The position numbers and the translations under genes are program-made. Below are positions 2,198-44,682 of a stretch of 50,428 nt of DNA, piece by piece. Each line of letters starts with the position of its first letter. Positions within the stretch are counted from its first letter, which is position 1. The notes beneath the pieces were generated by a model. The model was not told the origin of the DNA. It did no database searches and saw only the letters and a program-made list of their open reading frames with translations. The stretch is from a virus. Taxonomy: Duplodnaviria > Heunggongvirae > Uroviricota > Caudoviricetes. The stretch lies in IMG/VR virus record IMGVR_UViG_2909278081_000001, one strand, 5' to 3'.

Positions 2198-5100
2198 TTA
2201 TCTCGTAAAGCTAGTTTTATGACTTCCTGTTAGCTGACTGTCTTCATAATAAAATGCTCCACTAAACTCCTGTCGACCATAATGATGACTTGATGTGAGT
2301 GAGCCCCCTATAACGCCCTTTTCACCTAATAATGTCCAAACGATTTCAAAACCATTGTCCCTTAACATTGTTAAAAATGGTTCTTTTTTAACAAGTAGAT
2401 GCGGCTTTGAAGCATATACAGCTTCAGCTGCAAAGCAAACCATAGTTCCATTTTCATCATTGAAGCTACCCTCTACTTCCCCACTTTTTAATCCCATCTT
2501 TTCAAAGATTAAGTTACTAGGCTTCAAAAAATTCAAAGTTTCTATTTTTGATTTGTCGAACTCCTCTTCCCACAAATAATTAATCGAAGTGACACTAACA
2601 TCAGCAATCTTAGCTCCAGACTCCCGGTCTGTTACCGAAGTCCAGTCAGATCCACCATAATAATCTGATTTAAAAGACTTAAATGCTTCGGACCAATAGT
2701 ACTCCCTATTAAATAATTGGTATCTATCAGTACATTCCGGCATCCACCTGCCCATAAAGTCTTGAGCTATTGCCCAATCTCTAAAATTTTCAAATTCTTC
2801 AACTTTAACGATATAACTTCTGATCTGATACCAAACCTCTTTTCGTGGGTGCCCCCAATCATCGTTTCCAATAATTTTTGGTTCTTTCCATGATGGATAA
2901 CTTTCTAATACTATCCATTCATCACCATTATCATCTTTAACTTCAATAAAAGCATATGAATTAGTTATAGTAGTAGAACTTTTAACCCAGTCTTCATTAG
3001 AGCAAGTCCAATCAAACACTTCATCATTAAGCCACCACATTTCTTTATTGCTTATTTTTTTCGTTCCAGTTTCTTTAAGTAAGATAGTGGGATCTATATC
3101 TCTTACGTAAGGCTCCCATGGCCCTTGGTATGGATTTTCCTTTCGTTCGTCACCATAACCTTCAAAACGAGTAAAATTATCGGCTAGCCTTGCCATGTAT
3201 TCATAATAAGCAATCCATTGGTATTTTTTACCAATCCGTTCTTGGAATGCCTCTCTACGTCCACGTCCAGTTCCTATTTGTTGGTCAAAATTACCATGCT
3301 TCTCCGGATCCCAACCAAGCTCTATAACACGATTGAATATAAATTGTTGAGCTAGTCGAAGATCAAAGTGTTTATCAGTTTCCAGCAGATTATTATTATG
3401 ATCCAGGTATGGCTCTATTTCATTTTCAAACTCACTTAACAGATCGTATGACAATGAATTCTTAAATAATTTCTTGCTCGCCTTTATTTCTTCCTGTGCT
3501 TTTCTACCGACCACACGACCAAATTTAATTCCTTCGCATTTATCATCATAAATGAAAGGATCTGTGGCATCATGCAAATCTTTTTGTTGATCAGTTAGTT
3601 TACATTTGAAAGTTTTAAAAACTTGCTTACGGTCAACAGGGGTTTCATTAAACTTGCAACCAGACCAATCAGAATGATTATAATTTGTTCCAATAGTATA
3701 TCGTGAAAAGTCACCACCTTCCATAATCGAGCTCCAGAGTTCCCGATAAGGTTCTTTATCATAAAGGGACTCTAGTTCCTCTTTTGAAGGAATCTTGTCA
3801 GGCCAAATGCTGTTGTAGGGTGGTCTAGTCTTGGATAATTCAATGCTTTCAAGTTCCAATCCAAGATGATTAGCAAATTCAATAATCTCTCTAGCATAAT
3901 CTCTAAGTAATATATTTGGATACACATACTCAGAACAAAATACCTTTTGGTAAACAGTTTCGGCTAAATATTTTAGTTCTTTAATATTATCAGTTCGCAA
4001 TGTACAGCCTAATGCAACTGCAAATATTCTTTCCCAAACGTAAGGATCATTTACACCATAAAACTTATCAATTATTTTTCTCAATACAGGAATTCTTGGC
4101 TCGAGTAAACTCACTAAAGCCTTGGTTGAGCAATCTCGAAGTTCTCGGTTACTAGAAGTTAAAAACCAGCATAAACTAGTTGCAACTAGCTCGATTGACT
4201 CATCCGAAACGAAGCTTTTGTCTGTTCTGCCCCATGCCCAATCGATTAGATGCCTAAATGCTGAGTCTTCACTATATTTATATTTAAGTTTTGTAGTCCA
4301 AAACGAATCTCGATTTGCCAAAGGGTAATCTTTTAGCCAATCATGCAAGAAATTAGCATTAAAGGGATGGTCAACTAAACCTGAAATAGAGATCACTGCC
4401 TCGAGGAAATGATCAAAACTATCTTTAAATTTAAAAACATGTTCATTGATGAAAGGTCTGATTTTTTCGAAATCAATAGCCTTAATATCTCGCCATATCA
4501 AGCTATCAATAAAGGCTTCTAGTAATTTATGATTATTGCTGAACTCCGGCAGAAGTTCATAAAGCTCTTTTCCATACTTTTCTGGCAATTGAATAGACAG
4601 CGCCTCTACTATTCCCGGGTTTATATAAAAGTCACATTCATCATGAAAATATTTTTTCAGACGACCATCTGACTTAAATTCACTTTCGATATTTTCAACA
4701 TCATTTAATAAAAAATTAACAGTTAAATGATCATCAAACCTTTCAAAAGCCACATGAACTACTTCCTCAGTAGAATTATCATCATTTCTCACTATGCCTT
4801 TAGTCAATAATCCTTCGTCAATCAAGGCGCTGAGGAAGGTTTTATCAGCAACATAATCATTAACTACAGATTGAACCACTGAGTGAGCATCTCTAAGTGA
4901 AATACTATTACGACCAATCTCTAATTTGAATTTTATGATTTCATTGAGAGCATCTTTAACAAGAGGAAAACTGGGATCGAATGCATATTTTCTTGGCGAT
5001 GCTAATGATTTATTTACCCCTTCCACTAAAAAGTTAAAAATATTTGAAATCCCATTAAATCCAACAGGCACTTTGGTTAAACCATTTTTCTTAATGCCTT

Positions 5101-6652
5101 CACACAATAACTTAAGAAATAGAGGGTTTTTAAACTCTGGATTAAGGTTAGGTGATGAAGGCCTCTCTATATTGTAATAATCATAAAATAGACTAACCGC
5201 TTCCAACTCAACGTTCTGAAATCCAATATGTTCATGAATTTCAAAATTATTTCGCTCAACATTCTCATGTGAAATTGTTACATTTCTATATGTTGTTCTG
5301 ACTGACATTATCAGACCAAGCCATTCAAAGCCTCTGATTTCATCGACAAAACTGTTAATATTGTCATTCCAGAATTTATTTCCATTACCTTCATTAATAG
5401 CATCAATAAAAACTAAGACTCTTTTTCCTGTTTTTTTGCCATATAAATTCAGTTTTTCTAGGAATTCACGAGAAGTGATTTTAAGCTGTAATCTCTTGAA
5501 GATTTGTGACCATGGAGATTCATCTGAAGTAAGTTGTTGCCCTAGTATGAGTAGAGAAGGATACCCAGAAGCAATTCGATTTTTAATCACATCAGCCAGT
5601 AAATGAGACTTACCAATTCCAGCTTTTCCTTCGAGAAGTAAGAATGGGTTGTTAGCCAACTTCACTGTTGTTGAATTAATGAATGCACGTAATTCATTGC
5701 ACGCATAGTCAAGTTCCCGAAGCATTCGCAGAGTAGATGAATAATTATCACTGTAATGCTTGGTTTCACCTACTTGTTCTGACTTTTCTCGGAGTTCCCA
5801 CAATATTGATTCCGCTCCGCCAATAGCTGTCTGGCAGCTAGAAACATAGTTATTAAATTTATTTATAGGGACTTCATCTAATTTAGAAAAATTAATTTCT
5901 TGATATATATCAGAAATTTCTTTTAAGGACTGGTCTATTTCAGATAATTGTGAGGAAATTACATCGCAACTATGTAATTTCTTTCCAGTGACCAGAAAAC
6001 TATCTATATGCGAATAAAATATTTTAGAAAAATTATTAGTTCTACCGAGACCATCAAATATCTCTGCTATTTCTAGCTTTACGTTGAGTTCGGGTGTGTA
6101 TCGGCCTCCCAAGTCAGCTATTGCTTGACTACTTTTCTCATTTAACCAATCATCACTCAAGTGAAAAGTTAGTTTCTCATCTATAGACCGCAAAACAAGT
6201 TTAATTTGAATAAGCTCTTCATTAATATCGAATATTTTTTCTTTATAAGTTTCTTCGATATGTAGCTTTTTTAACTTCGAACAATTATTTATTTTTAACG
6301 ACAACATCCCATAAAAAAGGCTGAGTTGTTGTTGAGTTGGGGGAGTGACGCTTGGATATTCTTTGAACTTGTCTAATAACATCTCTTTGTCAGGGAACTC
6401 TTTAAAAAGGATGTGCTCATTCAACATCTCAAACAATGGTTTAGAATGATAAAATGGAATTGCTCCACTTTCTACTGGATATGTTTCTTCAAACTCAATT
6501 GCCGTCTCTTCAATTAGTTGATATAATCTATCCACATATTTTTCTGTGGGGAATAATGCTTTCTTAATCCAACTATATCCTTCTTGAGAAATGAATTGAT
6601 CAATAAGTTTAGTTGCTACATAAGTTGCCACTGTAATTGATATGGGTTCCAT
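2198..6652 (-). CDS. large P-loop NTPase, STAND/NACHT-like (1484 aa); candidate anti-phage defence protein
   Basis: Single uninterrupted 4.4-kb ORF, visibly AT-rich. Walker A LLEGKAGIGKSHLLADV about 330 aa from the N-terminus, Walker B-like RVLVFIDAINEG, long Trp-rich C-terminal region. Family assignment is inferred from motifs only. Confidence 0.6.
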   Translation of the reverse strand: MEPISITVATYVATKLIDQFISQEGYSWIKKALFPTEKYVDRLYQLIEETAIEFEETYPVESGAIPFYHSKPLFEMLNEHILFKEFPDKEMLLDKFKEYPSVTPPTQQQLSLFYGMLSLKINNCSKLKKLHIEETYKEKIFDINEELIQIKLVLRSIDEKLTFHLSDDWLNEKSSQAIADLGGRYTPELNVKLEIAEIFDGLGRTNNFSKIFYSHIDSFLVTGKKLHSCDVISSQLSEIDQSLKEISDIYQEINFSKLDEVPINKFNNYVSSCQTAIGGAESILWELREKSEQVGETKHYSDNYSSTLRMLRELDYACNELRAFINSTTVKLANNPFLLLEGKAGIGKSHLLADVIKNRIASGYPSLLILGQQLTSDESPWSQIFKRLQLKITSREFLEKLNLYGKKTGKRVLVFIDAINEGNGNKFWNDNINSFVDEIRGFEWLGLIMSVRTTYRNVTISHENVERNNFEIHEHIGFQNVELEAVSLFYDYYNIERPSSPNLNPEFKNPLFLKLLCEGIKKNGLTKVPVGFNGISNIFNFLVEGVNKSLASPRKYAFDPSFPLVKDALNEIIKFKLEIGRNSISLRDAHSVVQSVVNDYVADKTFLSALIDEGLLTKGIVRNDDNSTEEVVHVAFERFDDHLTVNFLLNDVENIESEFKSDGRLKKYFHDECDFYINPGIVEALSIQLPEKYGKELYELLPEFSNNHKLLEAFIDSLIWRDIKAIDFEKIRPFINEHVFKFKDSFDHFLEAVISISGLVDHPFNANFLHDWLKDYPLANRDSFWTTKLKYKYSEDSAFRHLIDWAWGRTDKSFVSDESIELVATSLCWFLTSSNRELRDCSTKALVSLLEPRIPVLRKIIDKFYGVNDPYVWERIFAVALGCTLRTDNIKELKYLAETVYQKVFCSEYVYPNILLRDYAREIIEFANHLGLELESIELSKTRPPYNSIWPDKIPSKEELESLYDKEPYRELWSSIMEGGDFSRYTIGTNYNHSDWSGCKFNETPVDRKQVFKTFKCKLTDQQKDLHDATDPFIYDDKCEGIKFGRVVGRKAQEEIKASKKLFKNSLSYDLLSEFENEIEPYLDHNNNLLETDKHFDLRLAQQFIFNRVIELGWDPEKHGNFDQQIGTGRGRREAFQERIGKKYQWIAYYEYMARLADNFTRFEGYGDERKENPYQGPWEPYVRDIDPTILLKETGTKKISNKEMWWLNDEVFDWTCSNEDWVKSSTTITNSYAFIEVKDDNGDEWIVLESYPSWKEPKIIGNDDWGHPRKEVWYQIRSYIVKVEEFENFRDWAIAQDFMGRWMPECTDRYQLFNREYYWSEAFKSFKSDYYGGSDWTSVTDRESGAKIADVSVTSINYLWEEEFDKSKIETLNFLKPSNLIFEKMGLKSGEVEGSFNDENGTMVCFAAEAVYASKPHLLVKKEPFLTMLRDNGFEIVWTLLGEKGVIGGSLTSSHHYGRQEFSGAFYYEDSQLTGSHKTSFTR

Positions 6653-33931: not shown

Positions 33932-34068
33932 GCGGCAGCTCCTTTCAGTGTTTTGGCGTAATTCTTCAGTATCCGGTAATCGGTCAAAACAGAACCAGGA
34001 AAACGATATAAGCGCAGGCGCACCCAGCGGCGGCGAAGACGCTCTGCCATATAAGACTCAAACATCAT
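33928..34068 (-). CDS. ylcG: small protein YlcG-like (46 aa)
   Basis: Not in supplied ORF list; minus-strand [49 protein letters not shown]; ATGA overlap with rusA stop, stop overlaps Q start. Confidence 0.6.
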
Positions 34069-34427
34069 TCATCTCCCAGTTCGGTGATGGTCAGCTCCAG
34101 CTTCCCACCTTTGGTAACGGGCATCTTCACAACACGGTAATCAACGACCTGAACATCATCCAGCCAGAAACCTGCTTTGGTGAGTGCGTCAAAAGCGGCT
34201 TTTTGCAGATTATCCAGGTCACGGCGACGGCGATCCGGCATGTGGCACTCAATACGGATTTTCACTGGCATAGCCAAGCCGATATCCAGCATTGCGTTTT
34301 TAATGATTCGGGCGACGTTATCGCAGTATGCCTGCCCCTCTGCGCTGACGTGCGTGCGCCCACGATTATGGCGGTAATAGCGATTATTGCTCGGAGGCCA
34401 AGGTAATGTGATGCTGTAGGTATTCAC
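34065..34427 (-). CDS. rusA: Holliday junction resolvase RusA
   Basis: 120 aa, [26 protein letters not shown]..., matches E. coli RusA. Confidence 0.9.
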
Positions 34428-34714
34428 GCCTCAATAACCCCCTCTTTCAACCAGATAACCTGTGTTCTCGCCATACCTTCCAGCGCGCATTCTTTTGCAT
34501 ATCCAGCGTCAACAAAATGCGTGCGACGGTCGATTTCGTCGTGGCAGGCAGAACATGCAATGGTGGCAATCAGGTCTGGCGGTTTGATACCGGTACCGCA
34601 CAATCCAGCCAGCCGGATATGTGCCAGTACTGACGTTTCAGGATTGCCATTACATACGCCAGGGATTCTTACCTGGCATTCCCGACCACGCGCTGCTTTT
34701 CTCAAATCAGCCAT
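34424..34714 (-). CDS. ybcO: YbcO-like Cys-rich protein (DUF1364, putative nuclease), 96 aa
   Basis: Start set at [14 protein letters not shown] with strong SD aggagg; supplied ORF extends upstream. Confidence 0.7.
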
Positions 34715-34877
34715 GATTCCTCCTTGCTGCCAGTCGCAACCATTTTTTATCAACCAGGCTGGCGGTATACCCGAGCAGTGTTGGTATTTCGGATGGCTTC
34801 AGCTCAGGTTTACGCTTACGACGATTTGGTACTTTGTAGATGTGTCCGTTCATGATACGAATAAGCGGTGTAGCCAT
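34707..34877 (-). CDS. ninE: NinE-like protein (56 aa)
   Basis: Not in supplied ORF list; minus-strand [59 protein letters not shown]; start overlaps ybcN stop, stop overlaps ybcO start. Confidence 0.6.
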   Translation of the reverse strand: MATPLIRIMNGHIYKVPNRRKRKPELKPSEIPTLLGYTASLVDKKWLRLAARRNHG

Positions 34878-35332
34878 TACGCCTCCTGCTTGTCGCGCAG
34901 CAGCTGGAACTCGCAGCGCTGCGGAATAGTCAGGTGGCAGCCAATATTCATCGCCCAGGCTTCAACCTTACACAGGAAGACATACATCTCTCCGGTATCA
35001 AGATCGGAGGTATGGCGTAACGACTGGATAGTAGTGATTTCGCCGGTTACGACATCAACCAGGTCCTTGGTTTCATAACCGAGGTATGTGTGTTTGAGAG
35101 CATCTTTTACCCATGCTGCGGTAGCGAACGATTTCCCCCTGCTGATGAGGTATTCACTGATTTCGCTGTACCACATATGGCTGAGTGCATTCTGGGAAAG
35201 ACTGCGTTTCTCACGCCACGGTTTAAGCACCATGCGAAAGCATTTTCCGTCCTCCAGATAAGGCTGGATCTGCTGGCCGAAAGCGGTGAAGTTGCCGCGA
35301 TGCAATTTGATGCCATCTTGTGGGAGGTTCAC
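34877..35332 (-). CDS. ybcN: NinB/YbcN-like recombination protein
   Basis: 151 aa; [17 protein letters not shown] resembles the NinB motif region; position upstream of ninE. Confidence 0.7.
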
Positions 35333-35779
35333 GATTCACCTCCGCAGAGGCCAAACGCTGGATGCAAAAAATCGCAGGTGCATTTCTGCATCTGTGAATG
35401 GAGAAGATAGGTTGGATTGTATGTGCGCATAAACGTCCCCGTTTAGCGCAGAAGTCACAGGAGTTGTTCAGGCTCCGGTGATACAATTATGGCGAATTGA
35501 TTATTCATAATCAAACAAGATAAGGTCTCAAACTTCATGCAAGCCAAGATTTATTTCTGACAGAATTATACAAAGAAGCTATTGGTCAGAATCTACTCGG
35601 ACTGTAAAACATACGCATAACCTTAAGCTCTCACTTTAAGCATTGTTGAAATAATAGCCGTCAAGTACAACCTTAACCACGACTGGGATATTTCCCTAGC
35701 TACCACGAGTTGTACTGCTATTAAACTGCCGTTAAATTCAGTAAGAGAATTTCATCCGATAAGTCAAGGCATGTAAAAC

Positions 35780-36823
35780 ATGAAAATTAACAAGATATTA
35801 TCATCTGCAACACTATTGTATGGTATGTCAATGGCCATGTCGGTCGGGAGTTGTGCAACACCTGTCCAGACTAATCTTCCTGGTTACACCCCGGGTGCAG
35901 ATATCATTAGTGTTTCACCCACCAGAAACCAGGTCGATCTCATTGGTGATGTTGTTTATTCCCAGATAAAAGGAACTCGTTCTGTCAGACAGCTTCACAT
36001 GTCAGTTCTTGTCCCGCGAACAAATGATTTAAAACCAGCCATTATTTATTATCCCGGCGGCGGATTCATGTCTTCTGAACATGACAAATTTATTGAAATG
36101 AGAATGGCTCTGGCTGAAGCTGGTTTTGTTGTGGCCGCTGTAGAATACAGAACAATTCCTGATACATTTCCAGCACCAGTTGAGGATGGGAAAGCTGCAA
36201 TACGTTACTTGAGAGAACATGCCAGCGATTATGGGATTGATCCTCAAAGAATCGGAGTTCTGGGTGACTCTGCCGGTGGATGGCTTGCCCAGATGATGGG
36301 AACTACAAATGGTGACAAAACCTTTAATAAAGGTGACTTTCTTCAGCAATCAGCAGATGTTCAGGCTGTTGCCACACTTTATGGGATTTCTGACTTGTTG
36401 AATATTGGCGAGGGGTTCCCTGAATCAGTGCAGGAGGTTCATCGATCTCCTGCCGTAACCGAAGCCTTAATGATCAATGGCCCTGCATTCAGAAGTTTTG
36501 CGGGAGCCCCCATAACAGCGTCAAAAGAAAAAGCGCTAAACGCCAGTCCAATCGGACATATGAAAGGAGTAAAACCCCCATTTCTTATTATGCATGGTAG
36601 CAAAGACACTCTGGTTTCACCTGAGCAAAGCGCCAAACTATTCAGGATGTTGAAGAAGAACGGCGATAACGCTGAGTACGTTCTGGTAGAAGGGGCTGAG
36701 CATGGCGATAATACATGGTATCAGCCAATTATTATAAACAGAGTTGTTGAGTGGTTTACTAAAAACCTGGGAACCCCCATAAAAACCGCTACCCAACAAC
36801 AAAAAACAAACGCTGACCTGTAA
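35780..36823 (+). CDS. lipoprotein alpha/beta-hydrolase (esterase/lipase family), cargo gene
   Basis: Signal peptide with lipobox (SVGSC), oxyanion-hole YYPGGGF, nucleophile elbow GDSAGG, C-terminal GAEHGD; only plus-strand gene in the minus-strand early-right operon. Confidence 0.8.
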   Translation: MKINKILSSATLLYGMSMAMSVGSCATPVQTNLPGYTPGADIISVSPTRNQVDLIGDVVYSQIKGTRSVRQLHMSVLVPRTNDLKPAIIYYPGGGFMSSEHDKFIEMRMALAEAGFVVAAVEYRTIPDTFPAPVEDGKAAIRYLREHASDYGIDPQRIGVLGDSAGGWLAQMMGTTNGDKTFNKGDFLQQSADVQAVATLYGISDLLNIGEGFPESVQEVHRSPAVTEALMINGPAFRSFAGAPITASKEKALNASPIGHMKGVKPPFLIMHGSKDTLVSPEQSAKLFRMLKKNGDNAEYVLVEGAEHGDNTWYQPIIINRVVEWFTKNLGTPIKTATQQQKTNADL

Positions 36824-36826
36824 AAA

Positions 36827-36847
36827 GCAGCCCGCACTTATGCGGGC
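36827..36847. terminator. hairpin between convergent esterase and ybcK genes (possibly bidirectional)
   Basis: gcagcccgca-ctta-tgcgggc; T-rich flank on the minus-strand side. Confidence 0.45.
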
Positions 36848-37172
36848 CAACCTATTTCACTCGATTCAAAAGAAATTATTTTTAATGGGGGCGTGACCAG
36901 CCTCTCGGTGCTCAGATACTTAATGAAGTGGAGTGGCATTCAGGCAAGAGGTTAACATCACCTGTTCGCCATAACCAAGCACGTGCACAAAGTTTGTTAT
37001 CAGTGAATTGTTTTGTGATTGGGTATTGTTGAGCTACTAGAGCAAGAATGCCAACATCCAGTGGCAGTGCCTATAGTAAAACTATAGCTCAGGGCGCTTC
37101 GTTCAAGATAGTTAATATCATATTAGTTACTTTACTTTCATACCATAGCACGGTTGAAAAAGTGATTATTAC

Positions 37173-38699
37173 TCAAAAATAAATCTCACCATCAACCATA
37201 TATTTAAGAGTACTTATCACCTGCTGGGCGGATATTACTTTCATTAAAGGATAGTGTTTAAAAACAATGCCATTCATAAAATAGATATCACAGGTTTTAT
37301 TATCTGTATTAATTATAATTTTTTCGAATATTTTATAGGCAAGTGTACGACATAGCTCTCGCCCATTTTTACTGGTTAAATCAATAGCATGAAAATCACC
37401 AAGTGAACTCACCCCTTTACTCTTCAAAGTTTTTAATGATACCGAAGCCCTTCGTAATTCCTTATCTAATAGTCTTATTTTCTCTGCTATAGCGGTAACT
37501 TCAGGCGCGACAGACAATGCAACGATTAAATTATTAATTTTCATCTGAAGCTCAATAATTTTTAACTCTAAAGTTTCATTAGCATCTTTCTTGTTTTCAA
37601 CTGGTTGAATTTTGCTACAATTAAAAAGCAATTCATTAATGATATTATAATCAACCAAATCTCTTTTTATTGATGGTCTGTCACATCGATGTAATCTTCT
37701 CATCGGACAAACATAATAGCCATGCAAACTTCCAGATACCGCATGAACAATCATGGTATTACCACAAGCCTCACACTTCATAACTGTTCGAAGTAGATTT
37801 ATTAGCATAGGATTCTTGCTACTATTGCTAATACCAAAAGGTGCCAACCGAATTTCCTGTACAGCGTAAAACAAATCATCTGATATGACTCTGGGATAAT
37901 AGCCAGCGATTTCACTTATCCCTTTCCCTCTTGCACGATATGAAGGTACGCATATACCTATCAGAGCTTTATTCGCTAATAATTTTTCAATTACAGAAGG
38001 TCCCCATGCACTTTCTTTTCCTGAGAAATTCTTTACAGCATGATCATTTAAATACTTGGCTATTGCATTCAATGAGCGCCTTTCCATCCTGAGTTTAAAA
38101 ATTAGCTCAATAGTTTTCACCCTGTCGGGGTCTGGAACAAAAGCCGTTCTTTTGTCATCCAATGAGAGCCATCTCGGACAAGAAGCCGTCATAATCGTGC
38201 CTGACTCCAGTGCATCCTGCCGTTTTTTCTTCCATGATAATTTAACCCGACTTGACTTTATCTCGCTTTCTTCATTTGCCCTTTGTGCTATAAGTATGGC
38301 TTTTATTAATGAATATGGCTCATTCAATGAGTCAATATTATAGACTGTATTATCGCAAAGAGTTATAACATCAATACCGTGATTCAAAATCAATTTCAGA
38401 CGCTCAATCGCTTCACCGACTTTTTCTCTTGAAAGTCTGTCCAGACTTTCAACTAACAATGTAGTCCCTGGCAATATATAACCATGTTCTATAGCATCTA
38501 AAAATTCCGAAAAAGCTCCTGATTGTGCATGCTTTCCATTGAATGCGCTTAACCCCAAATCTTCATACGTTACGGTATCAAGGTAATAATCACTATTTAC
38601 CTTTAGCCATTCAGTAATAAGCCTTCTCTGGCGGTTTAATGAATCACCAGACATCTGACCTGGTGATGAAAATCGCATATATGCTATGGCTTTTTTCAT
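37173..38699 (-). CDS. ybcK: large serine recombinase (YbcK-like)
   Basis: 508 aa; N-terminal resolvase-type fold (…AYMRFSS…), C-terminal recombinase and Cys-rich segments (CEACG...CPMRRLHRC); AT-rich. Confidence 0.8.
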   Translation of the reverse strand: MKKAIAYMRFSSPGQMSGDSLNRQRRLITEWLKVNSDYYLDTVTYEDLGLSAFNGKHAQSGAFSEFLDAIEHGYILPGTTLLVESLDRLSREKVGEAIERLKLILNHGIDVITLCDNTVYNIDSLNEPYSLIKAILIAQRANEESEIKSSRVKLSWKKKRQDALESGTIMTASCPRWLSLDDKRTAFVPDPDRVKTIELIFKLRMERRSLNAIAKYLNDHAVKNFSGKESAWGPSVIEKLLANKALIGICVPSYRARGKGISEIAGYYPRVISDDLFYAVQEIRLAPFGISNSSKNPMLINLLRTVMKCEACGNTMIVHAVSGSLHGYYVCPMRRLHRCDRPSIKRDLVDYNIINELLFNCSKIQPVENKKDANETLELKIIELQMKINNLIVALSVAPEVTAIAEKIRLLDKELRRASVSLKTLKSKGVSSLGDFHAIDLTSKNGRELCRTLAYKIFEKIIINTDNKTCDIYFMNGIVFKHYPLMKVISAQQVISTLKYMVDGEIYF

Positions 38700-38954
38700 G
38701 GTGACACCTGCTAAAGTATGCTTTTATAAACCTTAGTGGTGAGATATGATTTTTGTTTAATTTTTATTTAAAAAGACAATTAAGGTCACATTATCTTGAA
38801 TATACAACAATAATCGTATTGCAATTTTCTTACACCATAATCTTGAAAGCACAAAAGAATGAATAAAAACTAAAGACATTAACAAAAAGCATAAAACGAG
38901 GCCCATATAAATATACGAGCCTCCATATTTTAGTCGTTTAAAAACAAATTATTT

Positions 38955-39287
38955 TTAATGTGGTGTGCTTCGTGACAATAAATTAATAACCAACACACCG
39001 GCACAAATCAACATCATGCCTATAATGGCTGGCAGGTCCAACCGTTGGCCGAAAAATCCCCATGATAGTAAGCTAATCAGGACAATACCGACTCCTGACC
39101 AGATAGCATAAGCAATCCCTGTAGGAATATAAGCCAGCGTCTGAGCTAATAACCAGAATGATGCACAATAACAAATAATTGTACCAACAGATGGCCATAA
39201 CCGTGTAAAACCTTCTGAAAACTTCATTAAGGTTGTACCAATGACCTCTGCAAGTATTGCACCACCAAGATAAATATAAGGATTCAT
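38955..39287 (-). CDS. emrE: small multidrug resistance efflux protein EmrE
   Basis: From Met19 of the supplied ORF: MNPYIYLGGAILAEVIGTTLMKFSEGF... 110 aa, matches E. coli EmrE. Confidence 0.9.
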   Translation of the reverse strand: MNPYIYLGGAILAEVIGTTLMKFSEGFTRLWPSVGTIICYCASFWLLAQTLAYIPTGIAYAIWSGVGIVLISLLSWGFFGQRLDLPAIIGMMLICAGVLVINLLSRSTPH

Positions 39288-39354
39288 AGCATATTCTTTC
39301 CTGTTCAAACTGGAGAGAATTGTACTACAGTTTGAACTCAACTCACCTGTTTCA

Positions 39355-39657
39355 TCATTGTGTACCCATTGATGTTCTTTTATATACCCTCAATACCCGT
39401 TTCATCGCGGCACTCTGGCGACACTCCTTAAAAATCAAATTCGTGCTCACCTTTCCTTCCCATTCTTCTCTGGTAGCGAACCGATAATACACCGTTCGCC
39501 AGACCTTACCATCAACGACCAGGATTCCTGCCCGCGCCATTTTAGCCGCAGCCTGATTTATGCTGGTTACGGTTGCGCCTGTTACCGCGGCAACGTCCTG
39601 CGCACAGAAGTTCTTATGAGTCCCCAGGTAATGAATAATTGCCTCTTTGCCCGTCAT
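39355..39657 (-). CDS. ren: Ren (protects against Rex exclusion in lambda)
   Basis: MTGKEAIIHYLGTH...VTGATVTSINQAAAKMARAG, lambda Ren-like. Confidence 0.85.
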   Translation of the reverse strand: MTGKEAIIHYLGTHKNFCAQDVAAVTGATVTSINQAAAKMARAGILVVDGKVWRTVYYRFATREEWEGKVSTNLIFKECRQSAAMKRVLRVYKRTSMGTQ

Positions 39658-40355
39658 ACACTTGCTCCTTTCAGCCCAAACTTAGCTTTGATTTCTGCGA
39701 TCTTCGCCAGAGCCTGTGCACGATTTAGAGGTCTACCGCCCATGACAGGAAGTTGTTTTACTGGTTCAGGTATCGCCTCACCACGGTTAATTCGCGCGGT
39801 CATACAGGACAGTTCATCGGCAGCCTTGCGCCGTAATTCCGCGTCAGTCAACGCATTGGCCCGCATGTTCTGATACAGGTTGGTAACCAGCCAGTAGTGC
39901 GCGTTTGATTTCCACGGATAAGACTCTGCATCCGGATACAGACCACGCTTCCGGCAATACTCGTAAACCATATCAACCAGCTCGCTGACGTTTGGCAGCC
40001 CGGCGGTAACGGATGCTTCTTCCCGGCACCATGCAACAAACTGCCCGGGTGATGGCAGAAATGGTCTATTCTGCCGACGGGCAACACGCATTCCGGCGCT
40101 CACCTGTTCCATCGTGGTGATCCCGTTTTCCCGGAAAGCCAGAACCCACTGGCGGCGGATTTCGTTCAGTTCGTTCTGGTCACGATTAGCCAGGCTCGCC
40201 GGGAAAGTTGCCAGTAACTGGCTGAATACACCGTTGATTATCTGCGCTACCTGCTGTACCTGCGGCTTTTCGTCGTACTGTTCCGGCATGTTGTTGGCGA
40301 TCCGACGCATCTGCTCACGGTCAAAGTTAATCATCTGTGCGGCGATGTTTTTCAT
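39654..40355 (-). CDS. P: replication protein P (DnaB helicase loader)
   Basis: 233 aa, near-identical to lambda P. Confidence 0.95.
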   Translation of the reverse strand: MKNIAAQMINFDREQMRRIANNMPEQYDEKPQVQQVAQIINGVFSQLLATFPASLANRDQNELNEIRRQWVLAFRENGITTMEQVSAGMRVARRQNRPFLPSPGQFVAWCREEASVTAGLPNVSELVDMVYEYCRKRGLYPDAESYPWKSNAHYWLVTNLYQNMRANALTDAELRRKAADELSCMTARINRGEAIPEPVKQLPVMGGRPLNRAQALAKIAEIKAKFGLKGASV

Positions 40356-41281
40356 AGATCCACCCCGTAAATCCAGTCTGTGTTTGTCAGGTCGAGTTTT
40401 GGTTTGCTAGCTGTCACGCCTGCCTGTTGCTTGTTACGGTTGATTTCGAGTTGGGTCCACTTGTCGCGGAGTTTGGCCGGACTTAGCACGTTACCGGACC
40501 AGAAGTTGTCCTGGCATGCCCAGCGGAACAGCACGCACATGTCGCGGTGGTTACGTCCGTCACGTTCACGCATCAGGCGGATATCGTTAGCCCACCCTGC
40601 AAAATTCGGTTTTCTGGCTGATGGCGCGATGGTCTTCACCATGTCAAACATCCACTCTGCGGCGGTCAGGTCTTCTGCTGTCCCCCACTTGCTGCCGCTC
40701 TGAATTGCAGCATCCGGTTTCACCACAGGAAGATCGTTTTCTGGTTGGTCAGAGGATTCGCCAGAATTCTCGGACGAAAAAGGTTTTATATTGTCTTTTG
40801 TTAGTTTGTCTTTTGTGTTTACCTGATTCGGGTAAACGCCTTTACCTGATTTGGGTAAACTTTTTTTACCTGATTCAGGTAAATTTACCTCTTTCAGGTA
40901 AACTTTATTTTTCTTACCTGATTCGGGTAATGTAGACCATTCACTGACCACATTATTAATGCCGGTATTCCGCCCGCTCTGAATAAAAATCCCACGCTTT
41001 ACCAGAACACTTTTTGCAGCAGAACACTTGTGCGGCAATATCCCGGTTAATTCGGAAAATTGCTCGTTGCTAACCCAATCCAGTTTTTTATTAAAGCCAT
41101 ATGTTTTGCGCATGACAGCCAGAAAGACCAGAAGCTGGTGCTGTGTTAATCCGGCCAGCATCACAGCTTCCAGCAACTCATTTGCAATGCGCGTATAACC
41201 ATCATCGAGATCTGCCACGCGCGGCTCCTTTTGTGCCGCATCCGGCACTGGAAAATTGAATATCTCAGCAGTGTTTGCCAT
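40352..41281 (-). CDS. O: replication initiator O
   Basis: Start set at MANTAEIFNF (aligns with lambda O MTNTAKILNF; strong SD ggagga); supplied ORF extends to 41371; iterons lie inside the gene. Confidence 0.85.
   Translation of the reverse strand: MANTAEIFNFPVPDAAQKEPRVADLDDGYTRIANELLEAVMLAGLTQHQLLVFLAVMRKTYGFNKKLDWVSNEQFSELTGILPHKCSAAKSVLVKRGIFIQSGRNTGINNVVSEWSTLPESGKKNKVYLKEVNLPESGKKSLPKSGKGVYPNQVNTKDKLTKDNIKPFSSENSGESSDQPENDLPVVKPDAAIQSGSKWGTAEDLTAAEWMFDMVKTIAPSARKPNFAGWANDIRLMRERDGRNHRDMCVLFRWACQDNFWSGNVLSPAKLRDKWTQLEINRNKQQAGVTASKPKLDLTNTDWIYGVDL
40818..40930. repeat. replication origin iterons (five about 19-bp repeats) plus adjacent AT-rich stretch
   Basis: Repeated tttacctgattcgggtaaac-type units at about 40818, 40841, 40866, 40885 and 40913, each an imperfect palindrome, inside O. 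Confidence 0.85.
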
Positions 41282-41367
41282 AATTCCTCCCGCAATGAGT
41301 GTGTTACGATTTGCACCTGAAAGTCGGTTCTGTTCCCGCAGACCGACTTTCGCCATTTTTGAACCTG

Positions 41368-41913
41368 TCATATTGCCCCCAGCATGGTGGTGACCATCGC
41401 CATCAATGGACCAGCCAGATCCGGGTCCACTCGAAACATCGACACAATGCCTTCACTCATCTCCTTCAGTTTCTGGTGGCGTGGTGCGTTGAGAATGACA
41501 GCCTGTTTTGCCTCACTGAGTTCCTTTTCCATTTCAGCCAACCGAGTCATGAAACTATCCTGCTCAACCAGGTAACCGCGATATTCCAGCGGTAGTACCG
41601 CCAGAATTGCCGGGGTCAGTTCACGCACGTTATTTCGGTATTTTTCAGAATCGAATTTGTTATCGAGGAAGCGGAACAGCTTCTGGCGTGCACGGCTGAC
41701 ATCATCAGGGAAATCGATGGTGCCGCCGCCCTGCTCCCGATACTCATTCACAATGAGTGCGGCAACAACATCCTGATTATCTGCAGCCGACCAGGCGCGA
41801 ACGGCATCACGGATTTTTTCGTGGCCTGGCACCTGTTTTATTTGAGAACGATTTATCACCGCAGTCGGGCTAAATCCGCTAGTCTGTTGGTATGTAAGTG
41901 GTTGCATAGTCAT
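41368..41913 (-). CDS. CII-like regulatory protein (181 aa; not lambda cII-like in sequence)
   Basis: Occupies the cII position between cro and O; assignment by position only. Confidence 0.45.
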   Translation of the reverse strand: MTMQPLTYQQTSGFSPTAVINRSQIKQVPGHEKIRDAVRAWSAADNQDVVAALIVNEYREQGGGTIDFPDDVSRARQKLFRFLDNKFDSEKYRNNVRELTPAILAVLPLEYRGYLVEQDSFMTRLAEMEKELSEAKQAVILNAPRHQKLKEMSEGIVSMFRVDPDLAGPLMAMVTTMLGAI

Positions 41914-43074: not shown

Positions 43075-44682
43075 ATGGATATGTCAAAAAAAAATTTTGA
43101 ATTCAAAAATTACCCAATAGTCTTTATTGGCTCAGGCATTTCAAAAAGATATTTAGAGAACTACCCAACGTGGGAAGAGCTATTAAACGAGTATTGGAAA
43201 ATAACAAATCCCACAAATGATTTCTATAGTTATCTTTTAACAATAAAAGAATCACATAAAAATAACAGTGATAATGATATCGATCATAAGATTTATACAG
43301 AGGCAGCAAGTAAAATTGAAAATGATTACAATCTATTGTTTAGGACTGGCAAATTAAAATTAAATGGACTAGATGCCAAGAGGGTTTTTAGTGAAGATAT
43401 TTCACCATTTAAATACGCCATATGCCAAAGATTTTCTAATAACACAATCAGAAAGGATGTAAATCTTGATGAATTAGCATCATTTAAAACATTAATAAAA
43501 AAGGCCAAGATAATCATCACTACAAATTATGATGCTTTCATAGAAAATTTACTTCAAGAGCAAAATGTAACTCCAAAACTCTATATTGGAAATAATGGTT
43601 TCTTCGAAGATACTATTGGATGGAGTGAGTTATACAAAATCCATGGTGATATAAAGGATCCACACTCAATAATCATAAATAAAGATGATTACGAAAAATA
43701 TGACAACAAATCTATACTCATTAGTGCCAAGATACTATCTAACATGATTAAAAATCCAATAGTTTTTCTTGGATATTCTTTAACTGACAGGAATGTAAAG
43801 AAACTTCTTTCTGATTTTTCCTCACAACTACCTAGAGAAGATGGTCGAAAATCAGCTGAAAGAATAATTTTGATTGAATATAAAGAGAATGAACAAGAAG
43901 TAGTACCAAAACAGATTACCGATCAACAGCTACAAATTACATATACATCTGTTAAAACAGATAACTATAAACAGATCTATGATGAGATCAGTGCTGTTGA
44001 TGAAGGGCTCTCACCTTATGATGTTTTAAGGTATCAAAGAGCCATTAAAACACTTATCATTAATGAGGGTGAAAAAGGGCACTTAGATACTCTATTGGTT
44101 TCACCTTCTGACTTAGACAGACTTGAAGAAAGTGTTAAACAAGGAAAAAATTTAGTTGTTGCTCTAGGCGATAAAAAGTATGTATTCACACAAGTTAAAG
44201 AAATAAATTATCTTGAAGACTACTTATTTAATAAAAATGAAATATCTAATAAATTAGCCATAGATTTCATATTAGGTTCAGTAAACTCATTACAACTTCC
44301 ATTTTCAAAAACTATAACCTCATGTAATTTGAAAGAGTTAAGTTTGCCAGCTAAATATGTGTTAAAACTAAATCAACGCATTGAACGCCACGGAAAACTA
44401 GACGACTTGCTCAATAAAATCACCTTAGATAAAATCAATGCAAATAAAATTTACACCAACATCAAAGATATAAAGGATGCAACGTTCAAAAAGTACAAAG
44501 AATTGTCTATAGTCATTAAGAACATAAAAAATATCCCCAAAGAGGAGATTGAAGATTATGTTAAAAAAGAAGCGTTTGTTCAATTCAAGGCATGCGACGT
44601 TGACAATTTAAAAACCCAGTATAGGAAACTATTTCTTGCCTACGACTTGTTGATTCATGGAAATGTTGAAAAGATAAATTAA
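43075..44682 (+). CDS. SIR2-domain protein (ThsA-like SIR2 plus unknown C-terminal domain), candidate defence gene
   Basis: 535 aa, AT-rich; motifs IVFIGSGISKRY, ITTNYD, KIHGD, VFLGYSLTD in the order typical of defence-type SIR2 domains; directly downstream of cI. Confidence 0.7.
   Translation: MDMSKKNFEFKNYPIVFIGSGISKRYLENYPTWEELLNEYWKITNPTNDFYSYLLTIKESHKNNSDNDIDHKIYTEAASKIENDYNLLFRTGKLKLNGLDAKRVFSEDISPFKYAICQRFSNNTIRKDVNLDELASFKTLIKKAKIIITTNYDAFIENLLQEQNVTPKLYIGNNGFFEDTIGWSELYKIHGDIKDPHSIIINKDDYEKYDNKSILISAKILSNMIKNPIVFLGYSLTDRNVKKLLSDFSSQLPREDGRKSAERIILIEYKENEQEVVPKQITDQQLQITYTSVKTDNYKQIYDEISAVDEGLSPYDVLRYQRAIKTLIINEGEKGHLDTLLVSPSDLDRLEESVKQGKNLVVALGDKKYVFTQVKEINYLEDYLFNKNEISNKLAIDFILGSVNSLQLPFSKTITSCNLKELSLPAKYVLKLNQRIERHGKLDDLLNKITLDKINANKIYTNIKDIKDATFKKYKELSIVIKNIKNIPKEEIEDYVKKEAFVQFKACDVDNLKTQYRKLFLAYDLLIHGNVEKIN

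Follow-up and report, generated by a model that had tools for sequence, protein, structure and literature searches.

The AT-rich island at positions 35516-39354 of the IMG/VR virus record IMGVR_UViG_2909278081_000001, a Caudoviricetes sequence of 50,428 nucleotides referred to here as the window, should in all likelihood be regarded as a compound mosaic of at least three separately acquired cassettes, which occupy a site of the lambdoid phage genome that is permissive for cargo (a moron slot), with the term moron used as defined previously (PMC9928086). The cassettes would be emrE with its own terminator, ylcJ-ybcK together with the stub of a former downstream gene, and a convergently oriented esterase gene. 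They appear to have been assembled by ordinary recombination between related phages, which would be homologous where genes such as emrE are shared and illegitimate where microhomologies occur, and the recombinase YbcK encoded in the island probably did not build it. The edges of the slot are probably set by what the phage cannot lose, namely the replication gene P on one side and a conserved promoter-like element before ylcH-ybcN on the other; ren itself is missing from one variant of the locus (L003).

The slot extends between ren and ylcH-ybcN, and the island filling it shows a G+C content (GC) of 38.6%, as against 51.3% and 50.1% in the flanking segments 33938-35332 and 39355-41371. The same deviation is seen at the third codon positions (GC3), with values of 0.29-0.37 in the island genes versus 0.46-0.63 in the backbone genes. 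An initial annotation, which was made from the letters of the window, had described about 4 kb of AT-rich DNA interrupting a lambda-like backbone between ybcN and ren and had regarded it as a cargo island in the nin region; both parts of this description hold, the island being foreign cargo in the ren/ninB interval with a composition that is not uniform with that of the flanks. The island contains, in the order of the window, a gene for a 347-amino acid hydrolase on the plus strand, a pseudogene stub, ybcK, ylcJ and emrE. The last three genes are co-directional with the early-right operon, and the hydrolase (esterase) gene is convergent to them. As judged from the open reading frames (ORFs) and profile matches, EmrE, a 508-amino acid YbcK-like recombinase and an opposite-strand hydrolase with a GDSAGG motif and a lipobox are indeed encoded where they had been placed, and the hairpin reported beside the hydrolase gene is present at 36828-36849. 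The composition is also uneven inside the island, with a GC of 42.9% in the hydrolase cassette, 35.8% in ybcK, 27.1% in the ylcJ region and 40.5% in emrE. An origin of the island from one donor as one block was rejected because of these differences and the independent distribution of the parts.

This distribution was analyzed among 5426 complete E. coli genomes. The ybcK gene occurs in 1423 of them (26%) and the esterase cassette in 681 (~13%), including an O25b:H4-ST131 strain, yet the two adjoin each other in only 171, which is also the number of genomes with the full arrangement of the window (98.6-99.9% identity in all 30 records listed). Most carriers of the esterase gene (~510 of the 681 genomes, the ST131 strain being one of them) have it without an adjacent ybcK. 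The sole locus of this type that was inspected, UPEC-774U (L003, NZ_CP049852; 7379-12010), shows the esterase gene followed by a 3.5-kb inverse-autotransporter (intimin/invasin-like) gene and lacks ren, emrE and ybcK. The presence of the recombinase had been taken to suggest a separately mobile module, a proposal that is not supported: there is no evidence that YbcK moves the island as one unit, its parts assort independently (1423, 681 and 171 genomes), and the breakpoints on the ybcK side are scattered, while the edge on the ylcH side is common to variants without ybcK. Nor was any att-like sequence found that the ybcK variants, or the ybcK orthologues of other genera, have in common.

The gene set at the slot varies widely among the E. 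coli prophages of a 60-record sample, instead of being the same in most of them. The fillings observed are ybcL-ybcM, a gene for a P22AR C-terminal domain protein (P22AR-C) plus hypothetical genes, an outer-membrane protein, nothing after ybcK (O157:H7), an inverse autotransporter, a set of NinX and methyltransferase genes, and, in loci without emrE or ybcK, DUF4041, HEPN, TagO or NADAR proteins. In strain STEC1588 (L008, NZ_CP129263; 5687-7287), a 729-bp outer-membrane-protein gene is inserted in ren and splits it, a further case in which cargo entered independently at this junction. Parts of the locus also occur outside of prophages. Strain C289 (L006, NZ_CP097426; 2483-4342) carries emrE-ybcL-ybcM beside fliE without any prophage backbone and without ylcJ-ybcK; these genes are ~91% identical to the copies of the K-12 prophage DLP12, and only ~4 bp are present there in place of ~2083 bp of K-12. 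Of the 60 sampled records, 12 show solely an emrE match of this diverged type (~91.6-91.9%), and the one inspected is located at fliE.

The gene order of DLP12 in E. coli K-12 is renD-emrE-ylcJ-ybcK-ybcL-ybcM-ylcH-ybcN, and a DNA alignment shows the window to be collinear with it apart from positions 35516-37163. The backbone order is the same, and the blocks emrE-ylcJ-ybcK (window 37164-39568) and ylcG to ylcH (33938-35515) are 97.3% and 94.7% identical, respectively, which bears out the earlier recognition of emrE beside ybcK as the DLP12 arrangement. The esterase gene had been expected to sit where DLP12 has different genes, and these turn out to be ybcL and ybcM, contained in 1845 bp of DLP12 that correspond to window 35516-37163 with the esterase gene, a hairpin (T') with its repeat and a P22AR-C stub. 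DLP12 differs further in that its renD gene is interrupted by IS3. The prophage of the window appears complete and ends at an integrase gene, which in L001, a locus with 99.7% identity over window 33938-41908, is located beside icd as judged by homology, not beside argU.

The breakpoints beyond ybcK are nested. Past the ybcK stop codon, homology resumes at 37164 in K-12 (9 bp after the stop) and at 37107 in O157 (66 bp), and in the loci L007 and L008 it extends to 36955, with remnants to 36893. In the latter two loci an intact P22AR-C gene follows ybcK. The window retains a stub of this gene on the minus strand (36893-37061), which covers codons 1-58 and is disrupted by both a frameshift and a stop codon, and a tblastn search with the L007 protein yields 57% identity over 47 amino acids (E 1.3e-17) plus a frame-shifted continuation. 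This degraded stub indicates that the esterase variant derives from an L007-type arrangement via a replacement that cut into the gene. The stub is joined to DNA resembling that downstream of emrE at a GTGAC/GCGAC microhomology, as read by eye from the sequence of the window and, on the L007 side, from a back-translation of the protein rather than from DNA.

On the ylcH side, the break at ~35515 is common to variants with and without ybcK and falls where a conserved minus-strand element (35458-35514) has its upstream limit. This element consists of a promoter-like pair, with the -35 hexamer TTGATT (35514-35509), a 17-nt spacer and the -10 hexamer CATAAT (35491-35486), and of a hairpin with a 9-bp stem, TCACCGGAG-N9-CTCCGGTGA (35458-35484). 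An alignment of seven loci shows an unchanged -35 hexamer throughout and a -10 hexamer that differs in one locus only, with a variable spacer and unrelated distal DNA. The element possibly represents the promoter and leader of ylcH-ybcN, and selection keeping it may set the edge of the slot. The locus resembles the lambdoid morons and the mosaicism of nin regions: the genes are dispensable for the lytic cycle, deviate in composition, lie between conserved phage genes and are accompanied by putative terminators of their own and a candidate promoter, and the cargo differs at the same position in related phages. The terminator-like hairpins are those after emrE and beside the esterase gene.

Several points weigh against the interpretation as a mosaic assembled without YbcK. 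The variant frequencies are based on the best match per record and on a 60-row sample spread across the ranking, so that the sizes of the classes are only approximate. The number of promoter-like matches in the region does not exceed chance (12 found versus 11.7 expected in shuffled sequence), and the promoter call at 35486-35514 is based on conservation only. YbcK itself is no decayed relic and does something for which the mosaic interpretation does not account, as indicated by its intact invariant residues and by its ratio of nonsynonymous to synonymous substitution rates (dN/dS). Moreover, the ylcJ-ybcK-stub segment is flanked by the two copies of a 52-nt direct repeat (D1; 36839-36890 and 38912-38963, 79% identity, spacing 2073 bp), and the deletion alleles described below show a pattern that an excising element could leave as well.

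These points invite explanations in which YbcK is active at the locus. It may be supposed that the whole ~4-kb island with esterase gene, ybcK and emrE is one module, site-specifically integrated and excised by YbcK, since an intact large serine recombinase lies inside an AT-rich block which is discrete relative to prophages without it (L005). This is highly improbable, and the distribution data already refute most of it: each of the three genes assorts independently of the others, the edges are shared with variants that do not contain ybcK, and the GC differs among the parts. A search for border repeats, which had been proposed together with the module, gave only short, chance-sized matches at the outer edges, and neither repeats nor dyads mark these two edges (best inverted pair 13 nt). 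It is also very unlikely that the 2073-bp ylcJ-ybcK segment alone is mobile, with the D1 copies at 36839-36890 and 38912-38963 serving as attR and attL. Besides the flanking repeats and the purifying selection on YbcK, this idea draws on the occurrence of ybcK orthologues as lone AT-rich genes, both in unrelated prophages, where the cargo slots they occupy differ, and in a plasmid-like region, and on two precise 'empty' alleles. The latter were recovered by building the predicted deletion junction and using it as a query against the genomes: strains F467 (NZ_OY754409) and Rb-50 (NZ_AP025682) show the order ren-emrE-T'-esterase-ylcH at 2381-3815 without ylcJ and ybcK, matching the query with 100% coverage and 99.0-99.3% identity, and would represent excision products or unoccupied sites. 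In both, the copy-1-type repeat directly follows an intact emrE, and the sequence changes from the copy-1 to the copy-2 type inside AAATTATTTTTAATG, a block of 15 nt at the emrE stop codon that is identical in both copies.

The repeat is the only candidate for a pair of attachment sites, and several observations speak against this role. D1 copy 1 is a second, diverged copy of the DNA following the emrE stop codon and is confined to the esterase variant; it is absent from the K-12, O157, L007, L008, L003, L005 and L006 loci, and D1 was therefore rejected as a general feature or intrinsic end of a ybcK element. The similarity of the copies is one-sided, starting at the emrE stop codon and extending solely downstream, which suits a duplicated emrE flank rather than crossover-centred sites, and at its inner end copy 1 passes directly into the P22AR-C stub, with the microhomology read by eye at the joint. 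Copy 1 was also considered as the tail of a second SMR gene, but the tblastn result with EmrE was unconvincing and the P22AR-C stub lies beyond; copy 1 was reinterpreted as a short duplicated stretch of the DNA flanking emrE. In addition, the indel between K-12 and the fliE locus, which also removes ylcJ-ybcK, has another right end, located 2083 bp away at an AAAC-type microhomology, and no conserved non-coding flanks were found around the ybcK orthologues of five other genera. The absence of copy 1 elsewhere, the one-sided similarity, the microhomology at the stub and the differing fliE-locus indel make ordinary recombination the better reading of the F467 and Rb-50 deletion than site-specific excision. 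Whether the arrangement of F467 and Rb-50 or that of the window came first, either order of origin needs merely homologous or illegitimate exchange.

YbcK (37173-38699, minus strand) appears to be an intact large serine recombinase of 508 amino acids under purifying selection. All its Pfam matches exceed the respective cut-offs (Resolvase with 68.6 bits versus 23.3, Recombinase with 53.9 bits and Zn_ribbon_recom with 32.9 bits), and it matches the PHROG 95 integrase family with 3e-120. The residues R9, S11, Q15, D87, R88 and R91, as well as the zinc-ribbon cysteines C309, C312, C331 and C339, are invariant in 20 orthologues (to 30% identity), and the dN/dS values among the nin-region copies range from 0.07 to 0.23. 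Because a phmmer search of the Protein Data Bank (PDB) matched nothing at E <= 1e-3, structure prediction and Foldseek were used. The AlphaFold2 model (predicted local distance difference test score 81) consists of a catalytic domain, a long helix E, a recombinase domain, a zinc ribbon, a coiled-coil formed by helices 368-397 and 401-427, and an additional beta-rich C-terminal region (444-508), and its Foldseek matches are full-length serine integrase-DNA complexes with E values from 8.5e-19 (9dxd) to 2e-13, including PhiC31 and Bxb1. YbcK thus shares the catalytic, recombinase, zinc-ribbon and coiled-coil domains with the serine integrases of PhiC31, Bxb1, A118/LI and TP901-1, but differs from them by the extra C-terminal region, by the lack of known att sites or a known directionality factor, and by the position of its gene, which lies well inside the early-right operon while the phage has a tyrosine integrase.

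The orthologues of YbcK occur in diverse surroundings. That of Atlantibacter (59% identity; L011, 8001-10432) is encoded at a prophage end ~540 bp from ssrA, separated from the tail-fibre assembly gene by one or two small ORFs, and that of Erwinia (52%; L022, 9001-11954) at a prophage end just after the tail-fibre assembly gene, followed by two small ORFs and lepA. The Yersinia gene (55%; L013, 8001-10232) follows tail-fibre assembly and autotransporter genes at the junction with a P2-like prophage, the Pantoea gene (42%; L015, 8001-9518) lies in the nin region of a lambdoid prophage, and the Citrobacter gene (49%) in a region resembling a plasmid or an integrative and conjugative element. The orthologues at prophage ends could be integrases or cargo; the position was not accepted as proof of an integrase role, since it also corresponds to the cargo slot of the lambda b region.

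From these data it may be asked whether YbcK is an accessory phage recombinase, for instance a second integrase that opens another attachment site, or else an invertase or resolvase with its target elsewhere in the genome of the phage or the host, which is kept for the benefit of the phage and has nothing to do with the cargo. The purifying selection on an intact active site, the full serine-integrase architecture of the model including the coiled-coil, the presence of YbcK in viable phages, the 42%-identical orthologue at the same nin position in Pantoea and the 52-59% identical ones at prophage ends beside host genes such as ssrA are all consistent with this role. It is nevertheless unlikely: a target site for YbcK was not identified, the prophages concerned own a tyrosine integrase and an excisionase, the prophage-end position is at the same time that of b-region cargo, and in K-12 the ybcK leader contains a Rho-dependent terminator that keeps transcription of the gene low (PMC4150792). 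It is likewise unlikely that ylcJ-ybcK represents a minimal selfish element of ~2.07 kb hopping among the cargo slots of temperate phages (nin, b region) and plasmids, with D1 as attL/attR and F467 and Rb-50 as excision products, or, in a weaker form, that YbcK provides lambdoid phages with a second integration/excision pathway. The literature searched on ybcK holds indirect phenotypic and transcriptional data only and describes no recombination assay; apart from the leader terminator, overexpression of YbcK has been connected with a sabinene-tolerance phenotype (PMC7181518).

In the mosaic interpretation, the third cassette is that of the esterase (35516-36827, plus strand), composed of a 264-bp upstream region and the ORF 35780-36823 (347 amino acids). 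Its limits are homology breaks, at 35515/35516 relative to K-12 and at 36827 relative to UPEC-774U. The protein matches the Pfam families BD-FAE (PF20434; 3.2e-44, 151.4 bits versus a cut-off of 26.8) and Abhydrolase_3 (9e-23), and its sequence matches in the PDB are 6nkf (1e-36), 6mly (1.5e-22) and the BD-FAE structure 6tkx (1.8e-21). As judged from the alignment to 6nkf and 6tkx and from the motifs GDSAGG (162-167), HGSKD (272-276) and AEHGD (306-310), Ser164, Asp276 and His308 would form the catalytic triad. The enzyme resembles BD-FAE and the hormone-sensitive-lipase-like carboxylesterases in its alpha/beta-hydrolase type, GDSAGG elbow, PGGG oxyanion motif and Ser-Asp-His triad, but shows only remote identity to the solved BD-FAE-type members, even in the best alignment with 6nkf, and differs from BD-FAE in being phage-borne and encoded outside any polysaccharide utilisation locus. 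It also differs from most of its homologues in the type of signal sequence: the N-terminus MKINKILSSATLLYGMSMAMSVGSC fits a PROSITE-type lipoprotein rule with the lipobox MSVGSC and Cys25, whereas most homologues below 72% identity carry ordinary signal peptides. Each of the five E. coli loci that were checked encodes the lipobox cysteine, and of the four closest homologues three have it. It is replaced by Tyr in P0001, the representative of the E. coli esterase cluster (SVGSY), and in the homologue P0004, and some esterase alleles would therefore not be lipidated. The product is thus probably an exported and lipid-anchored carboxylesterase of the BD-FAE type.

The homologues with 63-80% identity are chromosomally encoded, with Dickeya, Pantoea, Pectobacterium, Kluyvera, Klebsiella and Rhizobium as named genera, which are mostly plant-associated. 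In the two closest clades outside E. coli (80% and 74% identity), the gene is immediately preceded by that for a phenolic acid decarboxylase (PF05870; L016, 1315-2889, and L017, 3514-6047), in one case with a divergent LysR regulator. This neighbourhood looks like an operon for hydroxycinnamate esters and supports a hydroxycinnamoyl-ester substrate, and the founding member of BD-FAE has been characterised as a feruloyl and acetyl-xylan esterase (PMC8165983). Taken together, family and gene context suggest that cleavage of hydroxycinnamoyl (feruloyl) or acetyl groups from substrates of plant origin is the most likely activity of the enzyme. A point against this assignment is that the more distant homologues in Pantoea, Dickeya and Klebsiella have other neighbours and no decarboxylase gene. 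A remnant of such a gene beside the esterase gene of the window was considered as well and rejected: none is present upstream, and the homology to L016-L018 is confined to the ORF.

The esterase ORF is followed by a segment on the minus strand (36828-36892) which contains the hairpin T' (36828-36849) and the repeat copy 36839-36890. The T-tract of T' is on the minus strand and faces transcripts arriving from the ybcK/emrE side, and the hairpin would halt transcription from the ybcK side before its antisense entry into the esterase gene. T' is not part of the esterase cassette of UPEC-774U, where the homology stops at 36827.

The remaining cassette carries emrE (38955-39287, minus strand), coding for a 110-amino acid SMR multidrug/quaternary-cation efflux transporter. 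It is 98.8% identical to K-12 emrE at the nucleotide level, and the protein matches NCBIfam SMR_efflux_EmrE with 240.6 bits (cut-off 226) and Pfam Multi_Drug_Res with 3.4e-35. The membrane-embedded residue Glu14 is essential in EmrE, and the translation MNPYIYLGGAILAEVIGTT contains Glu at position 14; the product is predicted to be a proton-coupled SMR efflux pump. Downstream of emrE follows a segment on the minus strand (38898-38963) with the intrinsic terminator T (38898-38923), a terminator-like match with 11 stem pairs and the tail GTTTTATGCT, and with the repeat copy 38912-38963, which overlaps the emrE stop codon. Between emrE and ybcK, a small ORF for a hydrophobic 49-amino acid protein (38757-38906, minus strand) was identified as ylcJ by its match to the Pfam family YlcJ-like (1.9e-30) and is so annotated in K-12.

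The arrangement as such is already known, as it is present in many E. coli genomes and annotated in named isolated phages. The Bievrevirus phages Perceval (prophage 2 of strain LF82, OV696612) and 4A7 (NC_049946) show a gene order identical to that of the window: P, ren, emrE, (ylcJ), ybcK, the esterase gene on the opposite strand, ybcN, ninE, ybcO, rusA and Q. The products are annotated there as multidrug transporter EmrE, large serine recombinase and alpha/beta hydrolase or esterase. The YbcK protein is 99.2% identical in Perceval, 4A7, 4C10, D2, 1W, 3W and PhiR47_2, the last five of which were included on the basis of their YbcK and early-region matches; the match of 4C10 also covers an 'Alpha/Beta hydrolase'. 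The Bievrevirus phages share 58-84% of the right half of the window and no more. Perceval is a lambda-like, spontaneously induced prophage of LF82, and EmrE has been described as an additional moron induced in Dulbecco's modified Eagle medium, the sole such gene reported for this strain (PMC9928086).

The arrangement matters little as it stands, being known and fitting the textbook view of lambdoid mosaicism and moron slots. The locus still illustrates clearly in what way a slot of this kind is rebuilt, with its nested breakpoints, gene stub, duplicated emrE flank and fixed boundary at a conserved promoter-like element. It also shows that emrE, commonly counted among the core efflux genes of E. 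coli, is carried by inducible phages along with the gene for what is probably a plant-phenolic esterase. The only part of the locus with a potential for novelty is YbcK as an intact, selected serine recombinase in 26% of the complete E. coli genomes.

On the Q-proximal side, the first backbone gene is ybcN (NinB/Orf-like; 34877-35332, minus strand), which was taken from the ORF list; it shows a weak Pfam NinB match (6.8e-05, 23.1 bits at a cut-off of 23.8), is 94.7% identical to K-12 DLP12 and is annotated as ybcN in near-identical genomes. Upstream of it lies a 33-codon ORF (35329-35430, minus strand) corresponding to K-12 ylcH, which is kept in every variant examined and whose coordinates were transferred from the annotated coding sequence 20030-20131 of L001. 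The last backbone gene on the replication side is ren (39355-39657, minus strand), matching PHROG 142 (Ren-like exclusion protein) with 1.3e-41 and labelled 'protein ren' or RenD in matching genomes and in phage Perceval.

A role of the slot genes in defence systems was rejected, as a PADLOC scan of YbcK, the esterase, YlcJ, EmrE and Ren matched none of these five proteins. Besides the island, the window contains two further AT-rich patches, at roughly 1-7.7 kb and 42-44.5 kb. A 1484-amino acid ORF at 2198-6652 (minus strand; GC 33-36%) codes for an Avs2 antiviral STAND protein (PADLOC PDLC02164, 1764 bits) and has no Pfam match. Its position is roughly that of sitABCD in the ChlosBP-23-1 prophage; Perceval is reported to encode sitABCD too, and the prophages of the Perceval type differ from the window in carrying sitABCD instead of Avs2. 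The SIR2_2-domain protein of 535 amino acids encoded at 43075-44682 (plus strand) belongs to the PADLOC candidate defence family PDC-S25 (781 bits). Its gene lies in a patch of ~30% GC adjoining the immunity region, where the near-identical ChlosBP-23-1 has genes for a Ser/Thr kinase and a PP2C phosphatase.

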